A stretch of DNA of 64,000 nucleotides from Shigella phage vB_SdyM_006. Under the pieces are notes generated by a model. It worked only from the letters and a program-made list of their open reading frames with translations. It did no database searches and had not been told where the DNA came from. The stretch is from the sequence record MK295204; one strand, 5' to 3'. Positions 5,017 through 56,700 of this stretch are shown here, piece after piece (positions within the stretch are counted from its first letter, which is position 1; each line of letters starts with the position of its first letter). A program made the translations under genes and the position numbers.

Positions 5017-5811
5017 ATGCTTAAAGAATTCTTAATTGAAGAAGCACAGAAAATCAATGATGTTTCTGTAGCTCTAGATGGCATTTTCGAATCAGTTGAA
5101 TTGTCTGATGATGTAAAAGCCCAATTCAGCACTGTTTTCGAAAACGCAGTAAAAACTAATGCTATCAAATTAGCAGAAACCCATATCAATGACTTAACTG
5201 AAAAAGCTGATCAAAAAGAACTAGAGATTAAAGAATCTGTTCAAGCTGCTATAGAAACAGAAATGACCGAAAACATTTCTAAATTTATGGACCATGTATC
5301 AGAACAGTGGTTAGAAGAAAATAAATTAGCTGTGACTAATGGTATTAAAGCCGATTTATTTGAATCTATGTTCCAAAGTATTAAAACCGTAGTTATTGAC
5401 CATAATGTTATTCTTCCTGAAGAATCTGTGGATGTAGTCAAAGAAATGGAAGAAGAACTGGAAGAAAGTAAATCTGAAGTTGCTTCATTATTCGATAAAA
5501 CTGTATCTTTGCAAGAAAAAGTAAACACTCTTGAAAAAGAAAAAATTATCAAAGAAGAAACTCAAAATTTGACTGAATCACAAAAAGAAAAAGTTGCTTC
5601 TTTAATTGAAGGACTTGCTTATGGTGATAAGTTCAAAGATAATTTAGAAGCTATTGTTTCTATGGTGTCTAAAACTAATGAAGAAAAAGCACCTATTTCT
5701 GAAGCTATAAATACTACTGATGAGAGCGGTATCAACTATACCCCAGAAAATCCTGTCGTAAAAAACGACCCAATGAGTGTTTATACAGCTGCGGCTAAAA
5801 AAATCAATTAA
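5017..5811 (+). CDS. 22: prohead core scaffold protein
   Basis: 264 aa, acidic coiled-coil rich; N-terminus MLKE-LIEEAQKI and NVILPEESVDVV-EMEEEL match T4 gp22. Confidence 0.85.
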   Translation: MLKEFLIEEAQKINDVSVALDGIFESVELSDDVKAQFSTVFENAVKTNAIKLAETHINDLTEKADQKELEIKESVQAAIETEMTENISKFMDHVSEQWLEENKLAVTNGIKADLFESMFQSIKTVVIDHNVILPEESVDVVKEMEEELEESKSEVASLFDKTVSLQEKVNTLEKEKIIKEETQNLTESQKEKVASLIEGLAYGDKFKDNLEAIVSMVSKTNEEKAPISEAINTTDESGINYTPENPVVKNDPMSVYTAAAKKIN

Positions 5812-21318: not shown

Positions 21319-21697
21319 AATGAATGTTTTATATTCTGACTTAGACCCTAAAATGGAAAAAGGCTGGGATAAAGACCTGCATAAAGTCGTAGGAGATAGG
21401 GCTGTCAAAAATTCTATTCTAGGAATAATTAGTACTAGGAAAGGGTCTAGACCCTTTGACCCAGAATTTGGGTGTAATATAACAGACCAATTATTCGAAA
21501 ATATGAGTCCATTAATAGAAGACACTATAGAGCGATCTATAGTTTCGGCTATTAAAAATTATGAGCCAAGAGTACAAAGATTAAAAGTTTCTGTTACTGC
21601 ATTGTATGATTCAAATTCTATAGTTGTAGATATTATTTTTTCTATTGTAGATAATCCAGACACATTAGAACAGATAAAAGTTCAATTATCAAAATAG
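21311..21697 (+). CDS. 25: baseplate wedge protein (lysozyme-like fold)
   Basis: 128 aa; blocks LYSD-DP-M, TRKGSRPFDPEFGC and NYEPR--L-V match T4 gp25. Confidence 0.9.
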   Translation: MSKMNVLYSDLDPKMEKGWDKDLHKVVGDRAVKNSILGIISTRKGSRPFDPEFGCNITDQLFENMSPLIEDTIERSIVSAIKNYEPRVQRLKVSVTALYDSNSIVVDIIFSIVDNPDTLEQIKVQLSK

Positions 21698-26056: not shown

Positions 26057-26060
26057 ACAA

Positions 26061-26090
26061 AAAAGGGACCAATTGGTCCCTTTTTATTTT
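26061..26090. terminator. bidirectional terminator after hoc-like gene
   Basis: A-run, GGGACC-AATT-GGTCCC, T-run. Confidence 0.7.
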
Positions 26091-28521: not shown

Positions 28522-28527
28522 CCAAAA

Positions 28528-28550
28528 AGGAGACCGAAGTCTCCTTGTTT
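28528..28550 (-). terminator. hairpin terminator (AGGAGAC-CGAA-GTCTCCT family)
   Basis: 7-bp stem, CGAA loop, T-run on minus strand; between cassette gene and alt late promoter. Confidence 0.6.
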
Positions 28551-33107: not shown

Positions 33108-33130
33108 AAAAAAGGAGACCGGAGTCTCCT
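33108..33130 (-). terminator. hairpin terminator 20 nt upstream of NADAR-like gene start
   Basis: AGGAGAC-CGGA-GTCTCCT with T-run on minus strand. Confidence 0.55.
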
Positions 33131-33137
33131 TAATCAT

Positions 33138-33450: not shown

Positions 33451-33474
33451 CAAAAAAGGAGACCGAAGTCTCCT
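33451..33474 (-). terminator. hairpin terminator (AGGAGAC-CGAA-GTCTCCT family)
   Basis: Same stem as 28528 copy; T-run on minus strand. Confidence 0.6.
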
Positions 33475-33479
33475 TAAAT

Positions 33480-33614
33480 TTATTTCTTGTTTCCTAAATT
33501 AGCTAAAAACTTAGCTCGCCCATTTTCTTGTCGTTTAACAAATCCAACCAGTTTGTCTAGGTCTTGGTTAATACGTTTATTTGTTTTTCGTTTGTAACCT
33601 TTACGTGCGGACAT
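33480..33614 (-). CDS. small basic protein, 44 aa
   Basis: My own translation: MSARKGYKRKTNKRINQDLDKLVGFVKRQENGRAKFLANLGNKK; below ORF-track cutoff. Confidence 0.3.
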   Translation of the reverse strand: MSARKGYKRKTNKRINQDLDKLVGFVKRQENGRAKFLANLGNKK

Positions 33615-33623
33615 AGTAATTCC

Positions 33624-33869
33624 TTATTTCAATGTAACAATATAATGACGAACAGCTTTACGTGCATTAGAACTTAAATGCTTAGCATATTTTAAATTAT
33701 CATTTTCGATAAGCTCTTGGTGAAGATTTTTTTGTTCTGGATTTAAGTGTTTAAAACCTTCAAGAACTTTAAGTGCTTCAGCCAGAACATCGATTGATGC
33801 ACCATAGTTTTCATGGCCATTTTGGAAAGAATTACGTTGGATATCTAAAATTGTTTTTACAAAAGTCAT
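33624..33869 (-). CDS. hypothetical protein
   Basis: 81 aa ORF upstream of gene 31 region. Confidence 0.4.
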   Translation of the reverse strand: MTFVKTILDIQRNSFQNGHENYGASIDVLAEALKVLEGFKHLNPEQKNLHQELIENDNLKYAKHLSSNARKAVRHYIVTLK

Positions 33870-33900
33870 AGATGCCTCAAAAATGCGAGGTTAATATTTA

Positions 33901-33917
33901 GTGGTCATAATGACCAC
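33901..33917. promoter_or_regulatory. 17-bp perfect palindrome GTGGTCAT-A-ATGACCAC
   Basis: Exact palindrome in the intergenic region downstream of gene 31; no adjacent T-run. Confidence 0.3.
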
Positions 33918-33942
33918 CGGTTTAGAACACATGTTCATATAG

Positions 33943-34260
33943 TTATTTATACACTGCTGCAATAGATTTATAATGAGCAGTAATAAATTTTATTGGGAAT
34001 TCACTAGCTTTTTTATCATTAAAAACAGTTTCTGGATGAGGAACATTACGCATGTTACCTGTAGGTAAAGGGACCTTATCACCGATCTCAAAATAACCTT
34101 GAGGAACACAATCACCAATGGCATAAATTTCACCATATTGTGGTAATTCACCTTGTTGACGAACACCAATAACAATACCTGAAGCCGAAACTTCTTCGGT
34201 CCCAGCTGATTCTGCTTTTGCTGCTATAATAACGCTTTCACCTAATGCTTTAATATCCAT
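33943..34260 (-). CDS. 31: head assembly co-chaperonin (GroES-like)
   Basis: 105 aa vs 111 in T4; GNMRNVPHP and FITAHYKSIAAVYK align with T4 gp31 (IRNVPHP, FVTCHYKAIPCLYK). Confidence 0.85.
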   Translation of the reverse strand: MDIKALGESVIIAAKAESAGTEEVSASGIVIGVRQQGELPQYGEIYAIGDCVPQGYFEIGDKVPLPTGNMRNVPHPETVFNDKKASEFPIKFITAHYKSIAAVYK

Positions 34261-34589
34261 TAAACCAACCTTAAAATGTCTTCATACTTCATAGAATTAA
34301 CAGAAATAATTGATTCTGTTGTAATAGAACGCCATGCATTAATCTCTGTATCAAATACTCGGATATATGATGGTGTTTTTGTTTCTTTTTCTGTTAAAGG
34401 TTTAGAACTATCTTGTTTAGGATGATGTTCTTCAGGAATAATATCATAATCTAGTGTACAGCGAATAACTCTAATAGAACCATCTTTTTTAGTAAAAACA
34501 ATTTCATTTTTACCATTATGTAGTAAGGTTTTAATTAAAGCAGTTAATTTAGCTTTTCTTTCTTCTGTAAGTTTCATTTTACACCACAA
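34260..34589 (-). CDS. conserved hypothetical protein
   Basis: 109 aa ORF between cd and gene 31. Confidence 0.45.
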   Translation of the reverse strand: MWCKMKLTEERKAKLTALIKTLLHNGKNEIVFTKKDGSIRVIRCTLDYDIIPEEHHPKQDSSKPLTEKETKTPSYIRVFDTEINAWRSITTESIISVNSMKYEDILRLV

Positions 34590-35125
34590 TAGTTAGTTAT
34601 AGTAGACCAATCAATATGATTGAGATTAGAACGCTCATATTTAATAACTTCAATTCCAGAATCTAATAAAATCTGGTCCCATCCAGGAACATTGCGATCA
34701 TATGTTTCTGCATAAACAAGTTTTTTAATACCAGATTGAGCAATCGCTTTAGCACAATCAGGACATGGCGATAATGTTACATACATTGTTCCGCCATCAA
34801 TAGAAATACCATTACGAGCAGCAAAAATAATTGCATTTAATTCTGCATGGATTTCATGTTTAGAAGACCATGCATTATGTTGCTCACGGAATTCCATATT
34901 TAATCCTGTAATAGTTTTAGGACGAGGACCTGGAACAATAATAGGTTTAGTCCAACCTTTTTCTGCTGCATGGTCGCAGCAATTGACGCCACCAGTAGGA
35001 GAACCATTATAACCAGTAGAAATGATTCTTCCACCTTTTTCAATAACAGCACCAACTTTCCAAGAAACACATTTAGATTCTTGAGAAATGATATAAGCAA
35101 GTTGGAGATATGTCGAAGCTTTCAT
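34574..35125 (-). CDS. cd: dCMP deaminase
   Basis: 183 aa; N-terminus MKASTYLQLAYIISQESKC-SWKVGAVIEK-GRIISTGYNGSP nearly identical to T4 Cd; zinc motifs HAELNAI and PCPDCAKAI. Confidence 0.93.
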   Translation of the reverse strand: MKASTYLQLAYIISQESKCVSWKVGAVIEKGGRIISTGYNGSPTGGVNCCDHAAEKGWTKPIIVPGPRPKTITGLNMEFREQHNAWSSKHEIHAELNAIIFAARNGISIDGGTMYVTLSPCPDCAKAIAQSGIKKLVYAETYDRNVPGWDQILLDSGIEVIKYERSNLNHIDWSTITNYCGVK

Positions 35126-35413: not shown

Positions 35414-35752
35414 TTATTCCTTAAGCATATACATATAAACTAAATAGGTTGTGTTTCTAGTTTTTACAATAGCTACTCTATCATCTAACATTTTAAAGCT
35501 CTTTACAGTAGATGTACTAACATAAGTTTCATCTTTAAATCGATTAGAAATATCACTGTAAATAAGTCCAGAAATACCAAATCTGGCTTCTAAATTAACT
35601 TCAAGAATATGCTCTAATTTATCAGACATTCGATGTCCGATAACAGCTAGAATAGCATCGCATGCACAAGCATTTCGAATAGAAGATAATTCAGATTCTT
35701 GGTTTTGCCCTATTTTATCTTCAATTGCGTTAATCAATTTTTCTGTTTTCAT
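35414..35752 (-). CDS. hypothetical protein
   Basis: 112 aa ORF immediately downstream of the DAHP synthase gene. Confidence 0.45.
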   Translation of the reverse strand: MKTEKLINAIEDKIGQNQESELSSIRNACACDAILAVIGHRMSDKLEHILEVNLEARFGISGLIYSDISNRFKDETYVSTSTVKSFKMLDDRVAIVKTRNTTYLVYMYMLKE

Positions 35753-36723
35753 TATAAGTCCACAATTAATTGTGCAGTGTCAAAGATATCAATACAAGGA
35801 TCTGTAATTGATACACCCCATAAAAGATTATCGGAAATCTTTTGATTACCTTCTATTAAATTACTTTCAATCATAAGCCCAAAAGTATTTTTAGCTTTAA
35901 TTGCTTCTTTAGCTACATTAATTTGGTTTTTAAAATTACCTTCACAATTAGCGTGTGAGCAGTCAACCATAACTGGAATCTCTAAAGACTCAATATATTC
36001 TTTAGAATAATTAGTTTTATATTCTTTACCGATTTTACCACCACGTAAAATAATATGCGTATTTAGATTTCCACTTGCATAGATTTTACTAATCACGCCA
36101 TCCATATTAATACCTAAATACGAATGTGGAAAAGCTGAACTCTTCATAGCATCTAATGCTACTTGAATATCACCTGATGTTGAATTTTTAAATCCAACGG
36201 CCATAGGCAGCCCAGAAGCTATTTCACGATGAGTCTGTGATTCTGTTGTTCTAGCGCCGATAGCAGTCCAACTAAAAATACCAGATAGATACTTAATAGT
36301 AAATGGGTCTAAGACCTCTGTCGCCAAAGGAAGCCCAAGATTCAATAGTTCTATGCATAAGTGACGAGCAATTCTTAACCCTTCATCCATGTTAAACGAA
36401 CCATTTAATTCAGGGTCATTAACAAGTCCTTTCCAACCTACGGTTGTACGTGGCTTTTCAAAATAGACCCGCATTACTAAAAGACATTTATCACCAATAT
36501 GGTTTTGTAATCTTTTTAAATACTGCCCGTAAATGACCGCTTGTGCTGGGTCATGAATAGAACAAGGCCCAACAACGATCAGTTTTTTAGAACTCACGCC
36601 AGAAATAATATCTTTAACTTCTTGGCGATGATTTTCCACTTGTTGCTTTAATTCATCAGAAATTGGCAACTCATCATGTAGCTCTTGTGGTGTGCTAATA
36701 GTTTTAACGTGCATGGATATCAT
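35752..36723 (-). CDS. 3-deoxy-D-arabino-heptulosonate 7-phosphate (DAHP) synthase, class I (AroG-like)
   Basis: 323 aa; collinear with E. coli AroG: VVGPCSIHD, MRVYFEKPRTTVGWKGL, GARTTESQTHRE-ASGL, HIILRGG, DCSHAN, ESNLIEGNQ, SITDPCI; all four AroG metal ligands (Cys, His, Glu, Asp) conserved. Confidence 0.88.
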   Translation of the reverse strand: MISMHVKTISTPQELHDELPISDELKQQVENHRQEVKDIISGVSSKKLIVVGPCSIHDPAQAVIYGQYLKRLQNHIGDKCLLVMRVYFEKPRTTVGWKGLVNDPELNGSFNMDEGLRIARHLCIELLNLGLPLATEVLDPFTIKYLSGIFSWTAIGARTTESQTHREIASGLPMAVGFKNSTSGDIQVALDAMKSSAFPHSYLGINMDGVISKIYASGNLNTHIILRGGKIGKEYKTNYSKEYIESLEIPVMVDCSHANCEGNFKNQINVAKEAIKAKNTFGLMIESNLIEGNQKISDNLLWGVSITDPCIDIFDTAQLIVDL

Positions 36724-53729: not shown

Positions 53730-56700
53730 ATGACTTTAAATAAATCACTTAAAGCAACGTACGGACTTGATGCCTCTAATGAAAAAGTTATAAATGTCGG
53801 ATTAGCTGACAAAAATACTTTAACAGATGGCGTTAATGTCGAATTTTTAATTCAAGAAAACACAATCCAAGCATACGACAAAAATCGTGGATATGAAAAA
53901 GGCTTTGCTGTTATATTTGAAAATAGAATTTATGTTTCAAATCAAAAAATAGAATCTCCAGCTGGAGATTTTGAGCCTCATAAATGGTTTTCTTTACGTG
54001 TAGACCCTAAATGGGACACGGTATTTGAAACCGTAGCATCAGGTCAAATTATAACATCAGGACAGTTTATTGCAGCTAATACGTCAATAAACGATTTATA
54101 TTTTAAATTGCCTAGAAAACCACAACCAGGTGATACAATTTGTATCAAAGAGGTCTCTGGTAATTCAGGCTATAAGTTCCTTAAAATAGGTAAAACCGAT
54201 AATAATATTTTATGGAACGGAACTAATGTTGAAGAATTATATCTAACACGTCCGTATTCGCAAACTTATTTTATATTTTCTGGGAACGTTTGGAATGTAT
54301 TTCAAATAGAGCACGAAGATATTGGTAGAATAATATCTACTTCACCATTAAAGCAACAAGTTTCTTCTGGAGAGAGATTATATAGATTATCCAATACTGG
54401 TCCTATCAATATCATGTTACCTAAATATGCTATGCATGGTGATGTTATTGAGATGTTTGATATTGATGGATTAACTTCAATAAATCACTTAACTCTTTAC
54501 ACGTCTGAAGGGTCTGGGCATGCTATAGGAACTTTAGGACAATCTAAATTAGAAATAAGAACTATTGGTAACGGGCGATTAGTATTTGATAGTTCTAATA
54601 ATCTATGGAGATTATGGGACGGCGATATAAGAACTCGTTTAAAAACTATCAAAGAAGATCGTAAACTATTACCTAATGAACAGGTTCTTGTCTATGGGAT
54701 GAATAATACAGTTAAAGAAACCGTCACTCTAACGTTACCTAGAAATATTGCTGTCGGTGACACAGTTGAGATTTCTTTAGGTTATATGAGAAAAGGCCAG
54801 ACAGTTATCATAAAGACTGAGGGCGATGATATTATTGGGACTGATAAAACATTATTACAATTCCCTAAACGATCTCAGTATCCGCCTGAAATGACCTGGG
54901 TTGAAGTAAAAGAACTTGTGTTTAATGGTACTGATGATTATTTACCTTATTTAAAATTTGCGTATGTAGAAACATTATCTGATTTAGGGTGGGCAGTTCA
55001 ACATTATCGTCCTAATGTTGAGCGTGTAGATTTTAAAAATCCAGAAAGAATCGGATTGATAGCATTAGCTACTCAAGATCAAGCAAACAAAGATCATGAA
55101 AACAACCCAGAAAAAGAATTGGCTGTAACACCATTTACTTTGGCAAATAGAGTTGCTACAGAAGAACGACGTGGTATTGCTAAAACAGCAAAAACTTCTA
55201 TGGTCAATCAAAACTCAAATGGAAAATTTGAAGATGACACAATTGTCACACCTAAAAAATTAAACGAACGAACAGCTACAGAAGAACGACGTGGCCTAGC
55301 CGAAATTGCTACTCAAGAAGAAACAAATACAGGTAAAGATGATACGACTATTGTTTCTCCATTAAAACTCGAGAACAGGAAAGCCTCAGAAACTTTATCT
55401 GGTATTGCTAAAATAGTCCCATCTAAAGGAACGCCAGGAACACAGCGTGATAAACAAGGAACTGGTGTTTATAATTACACGGATAATAAGACTATTGTTT
55501 CTCCTTCAGCTATACATGAGCTTTTAAGTACAGAAAATTCTCATGGTGTTGTTTATTTAGCTTCTGAAACTGAAGTTATTGAAGCACCAGATATGGACCC
55601 TAAATTTCCTGTTGCTGTAACTCCGGTTCAATTACATAAGAAAACTGCTACAGAAGATAGAATAGGTTTCTCTCAAATCGCTACACAAGAAGAAACTGAT
55701 GAAGGAACTGATAATTTTAAATTTATAACACCTAAAAAATTAAATGATCGAAGATCAACAGAAACTTTAGAAGGTATCTCAAGATACGCTACTTATGAAG
55801 AGTTTAAAAAAGGTGATTCAAATTTAATATCCGAGCCTAATAAAATAAAACAGTTTTTACAAGAAGCAAGAATAAAAGTTGTTCCTGAATCTGGAATAGT
55901 TTTTACTGGTAATATTTGGGACACATGTAATTTTGATATCAAACCTTCAACTGAAGTTGATAGAGGGACATTAAAATTATCAACTCAAGGCCAAGCTAAT
56001 ACTGGTGAAGATGATACAACAGCAATTACACCTAAAAAATTACATAATAAAAAATCAACTGAATTGGTTGAAGGTATAATCCAACTTTCTAATTACGCTG
56101 AAACAATAGCAGGTGATGTTAATAATAAAGCAATATCTCCTCAGAATTTTGTTTTAGCTGTTCAAACAGAAAATAATGGATTAGAAGCCTCTACTTCTTT
56201 ACGTGGATTTGTTAGACTGTTAGATGGTGCTAGTATTTGGCAAGGAACAGATGAATCTGGTAGTGACCCGGATAATGAAGACTTTTTGCATAATGGATAT
56301 GCAGTATCTCCACGAGAATTAAATAAAGCTTTAAGTCATTATCTTCCTATCAAAGGAAAAGCAGTTAACTCTACTTTATTTGATGACTTAAAAACTTCTG
56401 ATTTTATTAGAAGAAACATAGACCAAGAAATTGATGGGGATATGACTTTTAATAACCCAGTTATTCTTAAAGATACATTAGTTTCTACAAGTTCTGGTAA
56501 ATTTGAATCACTAGAAAGTAAAACGGTTTCTGTCGGTGACGGTACTAAAGGTTCAATAAACTTTTTGTCTGCTACACCATGGAAAATTGATGTACAAGAT
56601 GATTTCAAAATTAACAATGTAAAAATTGATAAAGATGAAGTTATCCATTCTAAAGGATTAGAAACAATTTCTCATGTTGACACTTCAGAATATAGATTAA

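Follow-up and report, generated by a model that had tools for sequence, protein, structure and literature searches.

Bacteriophage T4 has few structured cis-acting RNAs. In 2010, a review of its RNA structures knew of no T4 riboswitch or trans-acting regulatory RNA that had been functionally characterised, hoped for candidates from related genomes, and did not include rIII among the cases it listed (PMC3014915). The closest described systems include the T4 inhibitory stem-loops, the operator of T4 gp43, 5'-terminal stabilising hairpins, and the standby sites of structured mRNAs, in which a single-stranded region with a 5' stem-loop can suffice for S1-dependent function; in tisB, the 5' stem-loop is required for the binding of the 30S subunit and of protein S1 (PMC6690012). 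The locus analysed here lies in Shigella phage vB_SdyM_006 (record MK295204), of which a stretch of 64,000 nucleotides (nt), hereafter the window, was studied. The 73-nt spacer between gene 31 and the lysis-inhibition gene rIII, both on the minus strand, contains a palindrome, GTGGTCATAATGACCAC, at 33901-33917 (+). We lean towards reading it as the DNA image of a coding-strand RNA stem-loop, H2, the middle one of three (H1 to H3) in the rIII leader and the 5' boundary of the ribosome-binding region. That H2 is a selected sense-strand RNA structure is, in our judgement, highly probable; that it goes with the start of rIII and not with the gene 31 end is likely. As far as the sequences indicate, selection is on H2 pairing and on a fixed position about 29 nt before the rIII AUG, not on arm sequence or symmetry.

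The evidence that carries this reading comes from relatives. Loci came from IMG/VR, searched with protein patterns of RIII and gp31, and from phage records in GenBank; they numbered 65, with 39 distinct leaders from more than 10 genera (Bragavirus, Gualtarvirus, Tequatrovirus, which includes T4, Tegunavirus, Winklervirus, Karamvirus, Roskildevirus, Kagamiyamavirus, Mosugukvirus and others). Wherever rIII follows gene 31, the same plan was found: the late promoter box TATAAATA, present at every such locus, at or just past the gene 31 stop codon, followed by a hairpin, H2, an A/U linker and H3. A helix occupied the place of H2 in all 39 leaders, built from more than 20 different arm sequences, as illustrated by the window (GGUGGUC / GACCACU), T4 (GGUAGUC / GACUACC) and four further loci, L018 (GGUGGAC / GUCCACC), L028 (GGCGAG / CUCGCC), L181 (GGAAGGCG / CGCCUUCC) and L183 (GGUAUGGAUAAC / GUUAUCCAUACC). 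Loop lengths of H2 ranged over 3-46 nt, with the window at the lower end and T-even phages at the upper; the start of the hairpin lay at a variable distance, 17-74 nt, past the promoter box. In all leaders, 8-10 nt separated the 3' edge of H2 from H3, and 25-31 nt (mostly 28-30) separated it from the rIII AUG. The linker measured 8-10 nt and was 94% A/U across the 39 leaders, with H2 ending exactly at the linker start in every one. A hairpin began at +1 to +4 of the predicted late transcript in 39/39 leaders, with differing arm sequences, and the minimum-energy fold consisted of exactly three separate helices in 34 of the 39. The pairing of H3 was CCUC..GAGG in 33 leaders and had changed on both sides, to UCUC..GAGA, in the 6 leaders of a T-even subgroup.

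Covariation in H2 was assessed on an alignment of 31 distinct sequences comprising the 7 outer nt of each arm plus flanks, with the loops reduced to a placeholder; a smaller version of 20 sequences was also made. In the 31 sequences, 96.8% of helix cells were standard pairs, compared with 69% after shuffling partners and 33-48% after sliding the partner by 1-3 positions, and double-sided changes were seen at 6 of the 7 pairs, in 57 cells. The covariation score was 0.81 versus 0.27, and none of 500 shuffles reached it. When 8 native leaders that had not been fitted to any structure were aligned with MAFFT and folded with RNAalifold, H2 emerged as the sole consensus helix. The basal pair was G-C in 25 sequences and G·U in 6. 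Helix cells contained 14 G·U and 0 A·C pairs; therefore, the pairing works only on the coding strand, which points to RNA. A separate MAFFT alignment of the members with short loops was out of structural register, so that a covariance model was dropped and a pattern search for H3 used in its place; the arrangement CCTC..GAGG..ATG had a single occurrence in the window, at rIII. No Rfam match was obtained in the spacer of the window or of T4 at E values up to 5.

The expanded loops showed features of their own. The H2 of T-even phages encloses a conserved 46-nt inner domain (L003, which is T4, at about 5065-5125 on the minus strand; also L018, L021, L025 and L028) with its own helices, in which 7 of 18 predicted pairs show compensating changes and the unpaired stretches CUACAA and GAACGUG are invariant. 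Short insert modules are shared between the loops of H1 and H2 (L003 at 5035-5181 and the homologous spacers of L018-L028, L032, L034, L036, L011 and L012): CGGAnnnTAGTTAACCG occurs in the H1 loop of T4, L019 and L025 and in the H2 loop of CHI14, EcS1 and FBB1, while GACCATTAACAGGAT occurs in H1 of EcS1 and in H2 of Muldoon and PS2. Such structured modules seem to move between hairpin loops. In L025-L027 and L038 (RB69-like, Gaprivervirus), the whole leader is open in frame with rIII, with an ATG at the predicted late start (MDWLPDQLV...), so that a naive call of the open reading frame (ORF) adds about 47 residues to RIII.

The comparison within Bragavirus revealed what the palindrome itself represents. 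In this genus the stem of H2 is kept and its loop varies (UUA, AUU, UUCAU, AAUUA), with 4 variants in 5 genomes. The DNA of phiP4-3 and SJ_PmiM reads GTGGTCttcatGACCAC (RNA GGUGGUC-UUCAU-GACCACU) and that of Pm5461 reads GTGGTCaattaGACCAC (RNA GGUGGUC-AAUUA-GACCACU), both with the perfect symmetry lost; PM2 has GGUGGUCA-AUU-UGACCACU. Because the stem persists while the centre varies, the exact 17-bp palindrome is a feature of the isolate and not a conserved entity, and its perfect symmetry proved, on these sequences, to be incidental. The spacer of PM2 between 895 and 968 (L210) holds a different perfect 17-bp palindrome, GTGGTCAATTTGACCAC, at the same site. It departs from the palindrome of the window in the innermost pair; in a 3-nt A/U loop, bases at the two ends that complement each other are likely to arise by chance.

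The sequence-only reading had described a perfect 17-bp palindrome with a single-base centre downstream of gene 31, lacking an adjacent T-run, and had proposed a poor terminator that might serve as a dimeric protein-binding site or an RNA processing hairpin. The description was confirmed: the arms are 2 x 8 nt around a 1-nt centre, and the palindrome lies 25 nt 3' of the gene 31 stop and 31 nt 5' of the rIII ATG. The hairpin part of the RNA proposal held, with processing as a possible role, except that the single-base centre does not carry over to RNA, where the central three bases cannot pair. The protein-site proposal fared poorly. A site acting at the DNA level, either a symmetric operator for a dimeric protein or a cruciform, would agree with the perfect 8+1+8 symmetry in the window and with the different perfect palindrome that PM2 carries in the same place. 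It is barely credible in view of the symmetry broken in phiP4-3, SJ_PmiM and Pm5461, of half-sites that are not conserved and instead covary, with more than 20 arm sequences, and of a half-site spacing that is not fixed and spans 3-46 nt. G·U pairs occur on one strand only, and the palindrome overlaps no promoter, starting 26 nt past the TATAAATA box with no sigma-70-like site called on the strand.

Copy number is a further point against a DNA site. A search of the 64-kb window allowing up to 3 mismatches returned no other copy of GTGGTCATAATGACCAC, the second match being its own reverse strand. In IMG/VR, 5 contigs carry the exact 17-mer; their contexts are unrelated, none has gp31 or rIII close by, and these five copies are at chance level. 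A degenerate pattern specifying 14 bases had at least 120 matches and was uninformative. The sequence-only reading had suggested such a search for further copies. The same reading had named a sequence that is both unique and not conserved in relatives as grounds for dismissal: the palindrome is indeed unique in the window, and its structure is kept in relatives.

Taken by itself, the palindrome of the window is mildly unusual. The window has 14 perfect palindromes whose arms reach 8 bp or more around a 0-1 nt centre, compared with 5.2 +/- 2.2 in first-order Markov simulations that set the chance level (window GC content, 32%). Those with at least 4 G/C per arm numbered 4, with 0.13 expected. 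The other three G/C-balanced palindromes (21440-21457, 26060-26085 and 53953-53970) have an A-run on one flank and a T-run on the other and look like bidirectional terminators. Among shuffles of the leader, 4.5% held an equally good helix at the position of H2, a value that concerns the window sequence alone; the single-sequence helix is weakly significant, and the real support comes from the comparison with relatives. A palindrome without a function of its own, whether an inverted repeat that arose by chance in this AT-rich spacer or filler by which the spacer stays folded, draws on the roughly 5 perfect 8-bp-arm palindromes expected per 64 kb, on a helix that beats 95% of shuffles and no more, and on the in silico disruption of H2, which alters nothing else in the fold. 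We consider this very unlikely: the helix is kept by compensating changes in 31 distinct sequences from more than 10 genera, palindromes with at least 4 G/C per arm are expected at only 0.13 per window, and the spacing to H3 and to the AUG stays constant while loops gain or lose up to 46 nt.

In the window, the T4-type late promoter box was read from the sequence at 33944-33951 (-), overlapping the stop codon of gene 31 (33943-33945, -), and it is an annotated promoter in Pm5461. By the rule for T4 that places the box about one helical turn ahead of the start (PMC2988020), late transcripts would begin near 33938; a late promoter has been reported for T4 rIII (PMC2962797, PMC9409239). No promoter-like site was called on the coding strand of the window spacer, and the proximal early promoter of T4 rIII mentioned in PMC9409239 was not located. 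The coding strand of the spacer reads GUG UAU AAA UAA CUAUAUGAACAUGUGUUCUAAACCGGUGGUCAUUAUGACCACUAAAUAUUAACCUCGCAUUUUUGAGGCAUCUAUG. Folding of the predicted 72-nt late leader gave exactly three hairpins (z = -2.8 versus shuffles), with H2 the strongest. H1, GAAC-AUGU-GUUC at 33925-33936 (-), begins at about +3 of the predicted late transcript and is weak alone (-1.4 kcal/mol). H2, GGUGGUCA-UUA-UGACCACU at 33900-33918 (-), has a predicted energy of -10.0 kcal/mol and consists of one G·U and 7 Watson-Crick pairs around a 3-nt loop; the basal G·U pair, formed by the flanking G (33918) and U (33900), completes an 8-bp stem with 4 G-C pairs. A 9-nt linker of A and U only, AAAUAUUAA at 33891-33899 (-), predicted to be 0.98 unpaired, joins H2 to H3. 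H3, CCUCG-CAUUUU-UGAGG at 33875-33890 (-; -4.0 kcal/mol), contains in its 3' arm the rIII Shine-Dalgarno (SD) sequence GAGG (33875-33878), which is paired to more than 99% in the model (unpaired probability below 0.01), and the rIII AUG follows 5 nt past H3. Among the 15 TATAAATA sites of the window, the rIII leader was by a wide margin the most structured (-13.4 versus a mean of -4.2 kcal/mol); strong folding as a general feature of late leaders was rejected, as the other 14 sites have short, unstructured leaders.

Two further candidates were set aside. A riboswitch-like switch, in which the arms of H2 would pair with the anti-SD or SD strand of H3, was checked by hand and showed no conserved complementarity. 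A mini-ORF, ATGACCACTAAATATTAA (MTTKY*), at 33908-33891 (-), begins within the H2 loop and runs up to the base directly before H3; phiP4-3 and SJ_PmiM have it, Pm5461 and PM2 lack it, it is not conserved elsewhere, and it is probably due to chance.

The gene that H2 serves was judged from spacing and context. H2 stands at widely varying distances from the gene 31 stop but at a fixed one from the rIII AUG. The stretch past gene 31 in Klebsiella phage KP15 holds neither a TATAAATA box nor hairpins, and an unrelated ORF starts there 10 nt behind gene 31. The fixed spacing to the AUG, the lack of hairpins in KP15 and the unusually structured leader together make it likely that H2 belongs with the translation start of rIII and not with the end of gene 31. 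The ORF in KP15 (L208, 3281-3896) is KP15_69A, of 83 amino acids (aa), with the size and position of rIII and followed by two tRNA genes; apart from a short KYAK stretch, it showed no detectable similarity to rIII (hhalign probability 4%).

An alternative in which H2 serves gene 31 is unlikely, despite several points in its favour. H2 would here act as a 3' protective stem-loop after endonuclease cleavage in the linker, or as a leaky terminator or attenuator that lowers early and middle read-through into rIII. The hairpin does lie within the 3' untranslated region of every gene 31 transcript, is stable (-10 kcal/mol), and is followed by a 9-nt A/U single strand between two stems. Such an A/U single strand flanked by stems is the kind of context that RNase E prefers, and several relatives have U-rich linkers as well (T4 GAGUUUUAA, PetCM34 AAAUUUUUAA, EcS1 UAAUUUUUA). 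The variable distance from the stop codon, set against the fixed distance to the AUG, speaks against this alternative, as does the KP15 gene 31, which has no such hairpin. The earlier assessment of a poor terminator was borne out in this context: the window hairpin lacks a U-tract, its tail being UAAAUAUU, both strands lack a T-run beside the palindrome (CGGTTTAGAAC follows on the plus strand, TAAATATTAACC on the minus strand), and the terminator scan called neither the palindrome nor its T4 counterpart. The genuine terminators of the phage are GC-rich UUCG hairpins followed by U6, one of which, AAGGAGAC-UUCG-GUCUCCUU then UUUUUU at 33456-33475 (-), was called by the scan as a canonical intrinsic terminator about 400 nt further downstream, where it closes the unit after rIII and a 44-aa ORF. 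In T4, moreover, RIII is made from 5 min after infection (PMC9409239), so that read-through into T4 rIII is not blocked.

Returning to H2 as the boundary of the rIII ribosome-binding region, a mechanism can be proposed in which the small hairpin H3 would keep the rIII SD closed, while H2 would form the 5' structural boundary of this region and, together with the A/U linker, might give 30S subunits and protein S1 a place to land or stand by near the closed SD. Early, middle and late promoters are reported to drive T4 rIII, and its product can be detected from 5 min (PMC9409239, PMC2962797); as the late promoter lies upstream of all three hairpins, each of them would be present on late and read-through transcripts alike. 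Close packing of the hairpins, joined by short A/U linkers, might also leave little naked RNA for RNase E or 3' exonucleases, with H1 as a putative 5'-terminal protective hairpin and H2 itself in that position in Gualtarvirus. The translation or standby role of H2, suggested by analogy, is put forward tentatively; a role in stability is a possibility that we hold with equal reserve, and the two may coexist.

RIII binds ribosomal protein S1 through the RNA-binding domains of S1 (PMC9409239). In its fullest form, the proposal would make the three-hairpin leader a dedicated cis-regulatory RNA of T4-like phages, in which H2 and the linker recruit 30S via S1 to a closed SD, RIII, by its binding to S1, feeds back on its own synthesis and thereby on the timing of lysis inhibition, and the 46-nt domain of T-even phages adds a further input; we regard this as a long shot. 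A related alternative, that H2, linker and H3 form a translational operator for a specific protein, in the manner of the T4 gp43 or RegA operators and possibly for RIII via S1, appears improbable. The layout does resemble the gp43 operator (PMC3014915), the T-even H2 encloses a conserved domain with invariant unpaired stretches and covarying helices, and the binding of RIII to the RNA-binding domains of S1 would suit such an arrangement. However, the Bragavirus loop differs among close relatives, with four variants in five genomes, and shrinks to 3 nt, and the stem sequence is not conserved across genera; this variation in loop and stem leaves nothing constant that a protein could recognise by sequence. 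For RIII itself, binding to RNA has not been reported.

Several observations weigh against our preferred interpretation of H2 as a selected leader element bounding the rIII ribosome-binding region. The covariation alignments were built on the best helix near a fixed anchor and therefore lean towards structure, and the asymmetry between G·U and A·C pairs is inflated because the helix finder accepted G·T but not A·C. Examined one by one, the helices were only weakly better than those of shuffles (median 0.065). The contrast with KP15 represents a single lineage. In silico mutation of either arm of H2 left H3 and the accessibility of the linker unchanged, so that a role of H2 as a folding insulator is unsupported. 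With its start about 20 nt into the predicted late transcript, H2 of the window is not itself a 5'-terminal protective hairpin. The late start site is predicted from the general T4 rule and the structure of the leader from folding and comparison, and the standby role is modelled on other mRNAs.

The window belongs to a T4-like Proteus phage in the genus Bragavirus, and identity in the surrounding region is 97% with phiP4-3 and SJ_PmiM and 87% with PM2 and Pm5461. The local gene order, all on the minus strand, is dCMP deaminase (34574-35125, in the upstream part of the run), a 31.1-like ORF, gene 31, rIII, the 44-aa ORF (33480-33614, after rIII) and the UUCG-loop terminator. Gene 31 (33943-34260) encodes gp31, the GroES-like head-assembly co-chaperonin; its ORF aligns with T4 gp31, and a head assembly cochaperone is annotated at the homologous place in phiP4-3 and Pm5461. 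The rIII ORF (33624-33869, ATG at 33869-33867) encodes a lysis-inhibition accessory protein of 81 aa that is annotated as rIII in relatives and shares 64-96% identity with the RIII proteins of T4 and relatives. Three terminators on the minus strand (33112-33131, 33456-33475 and 28527-28546) have an identical stem and T-run, AAGGAGAC-UUCG or UCCG-GUCUCCUUUUUU, with unrelated flanks, and one terminator hairpin thus appears to be re-used by the phage at several gene boundaries. A 323-aa ORF at 35752-36723 (-) is annotated in relatives as phospho-2-dehydro-3-deoxyheptonate aldolase (DAHP synthase), a shikimate-pathway enzyme in a T4-like phage.

The rIII leader is an ordinary kind of cis-acting mRNA element that has apparently gone uncatalogued, and it is absent from Rfam. 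We found no description of the rIII spacer in the accessible literature; an earlier mention of a T4 stem-loop in the 1992 rIII sequence paper, the 2003 T4 genome review or the 2016 RIII paper is possible. The gene rIII is one of the classical lysis-inhibition genes. Its leader provides a direct handle on how the level of rIII is set, and a covariation-supported leader with a fixed start-codon geometry presents a concrete target for compensating mutations. For the scanning of phage genomes, the lesson is to take a perfect palindrome between phage genes in the first instance as an RNA stem of the transcribed strand and to check it in close relatives.

Among known systems, the Rho-independent terminators of the phage itself (e.g., 33456-33475) are likewise short, G/C-containing, intergenic stem-loops on the transcribed strand. 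H2 differs from them in its tail, UAAAUAUUAACC, which has no U-tract, in its place inside a transcription unit, between a late promoter and its gene instead of at the end, and in a stem that varies between relatives, whereas the terminator hairpins are re-used identically. Stabilising stem-loops at 5' ends, of the ompA type, were reportedly described by Emory, Bouvet and Belasco in 1992. The likeness to them lies in the hairpin found within 1-4 nt of the predicted late 5' end in 39/39 leaders, and in Gualtarvirus it is H2 itself that begins at +4; in the window and most genera, however, the 5' hairpin is H1, and H2 lies about 20 nt or more from the predicted 5' end. The gp43 operator shares with the rIII leader a hairpin tens of nt upstream of the AUG, followed by a single strand leading into the ribosome-binding site, but its loop is conserved and recognised by protein, whereas the loop of H2 differs among near-identical phages.

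The inhibitory stem-loops of T4 genes e, soc, 49 and I-TevI (PMC3014915) come from the same group of phages, place the SD in a local helix, as H3 would here, have TATAAATA just upstream, and are conserved in relatives. Those genes carry their late promoter within the 5' strand of the helix, and late transcripts thereby escape inhibition, whereas the rIII promoter is upstream of H1-H3 in all leaders. The inhibitory helices hide the SD or AUG; H2 of the window touches neither, and H3 is predicted to hide the SD. Standby sites, as in tisB +42 mRNA and the MS2 coat gene (PMC6690012, PMC5934652), likewise combine a structured ribosome-binding site, an adjacent single-stranded segment and a 5' stem-loop, which correspond in the predicted layout of the rIII leader to H3, the A/U linker and H2. 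The differences are that H3 (-4 kcal/mol) is weak compared with the tisB structure and that the tisB standby site is about 100 nt from its ribosome-binding site, whereas the rIII candidate would stand directly adjacent to it.

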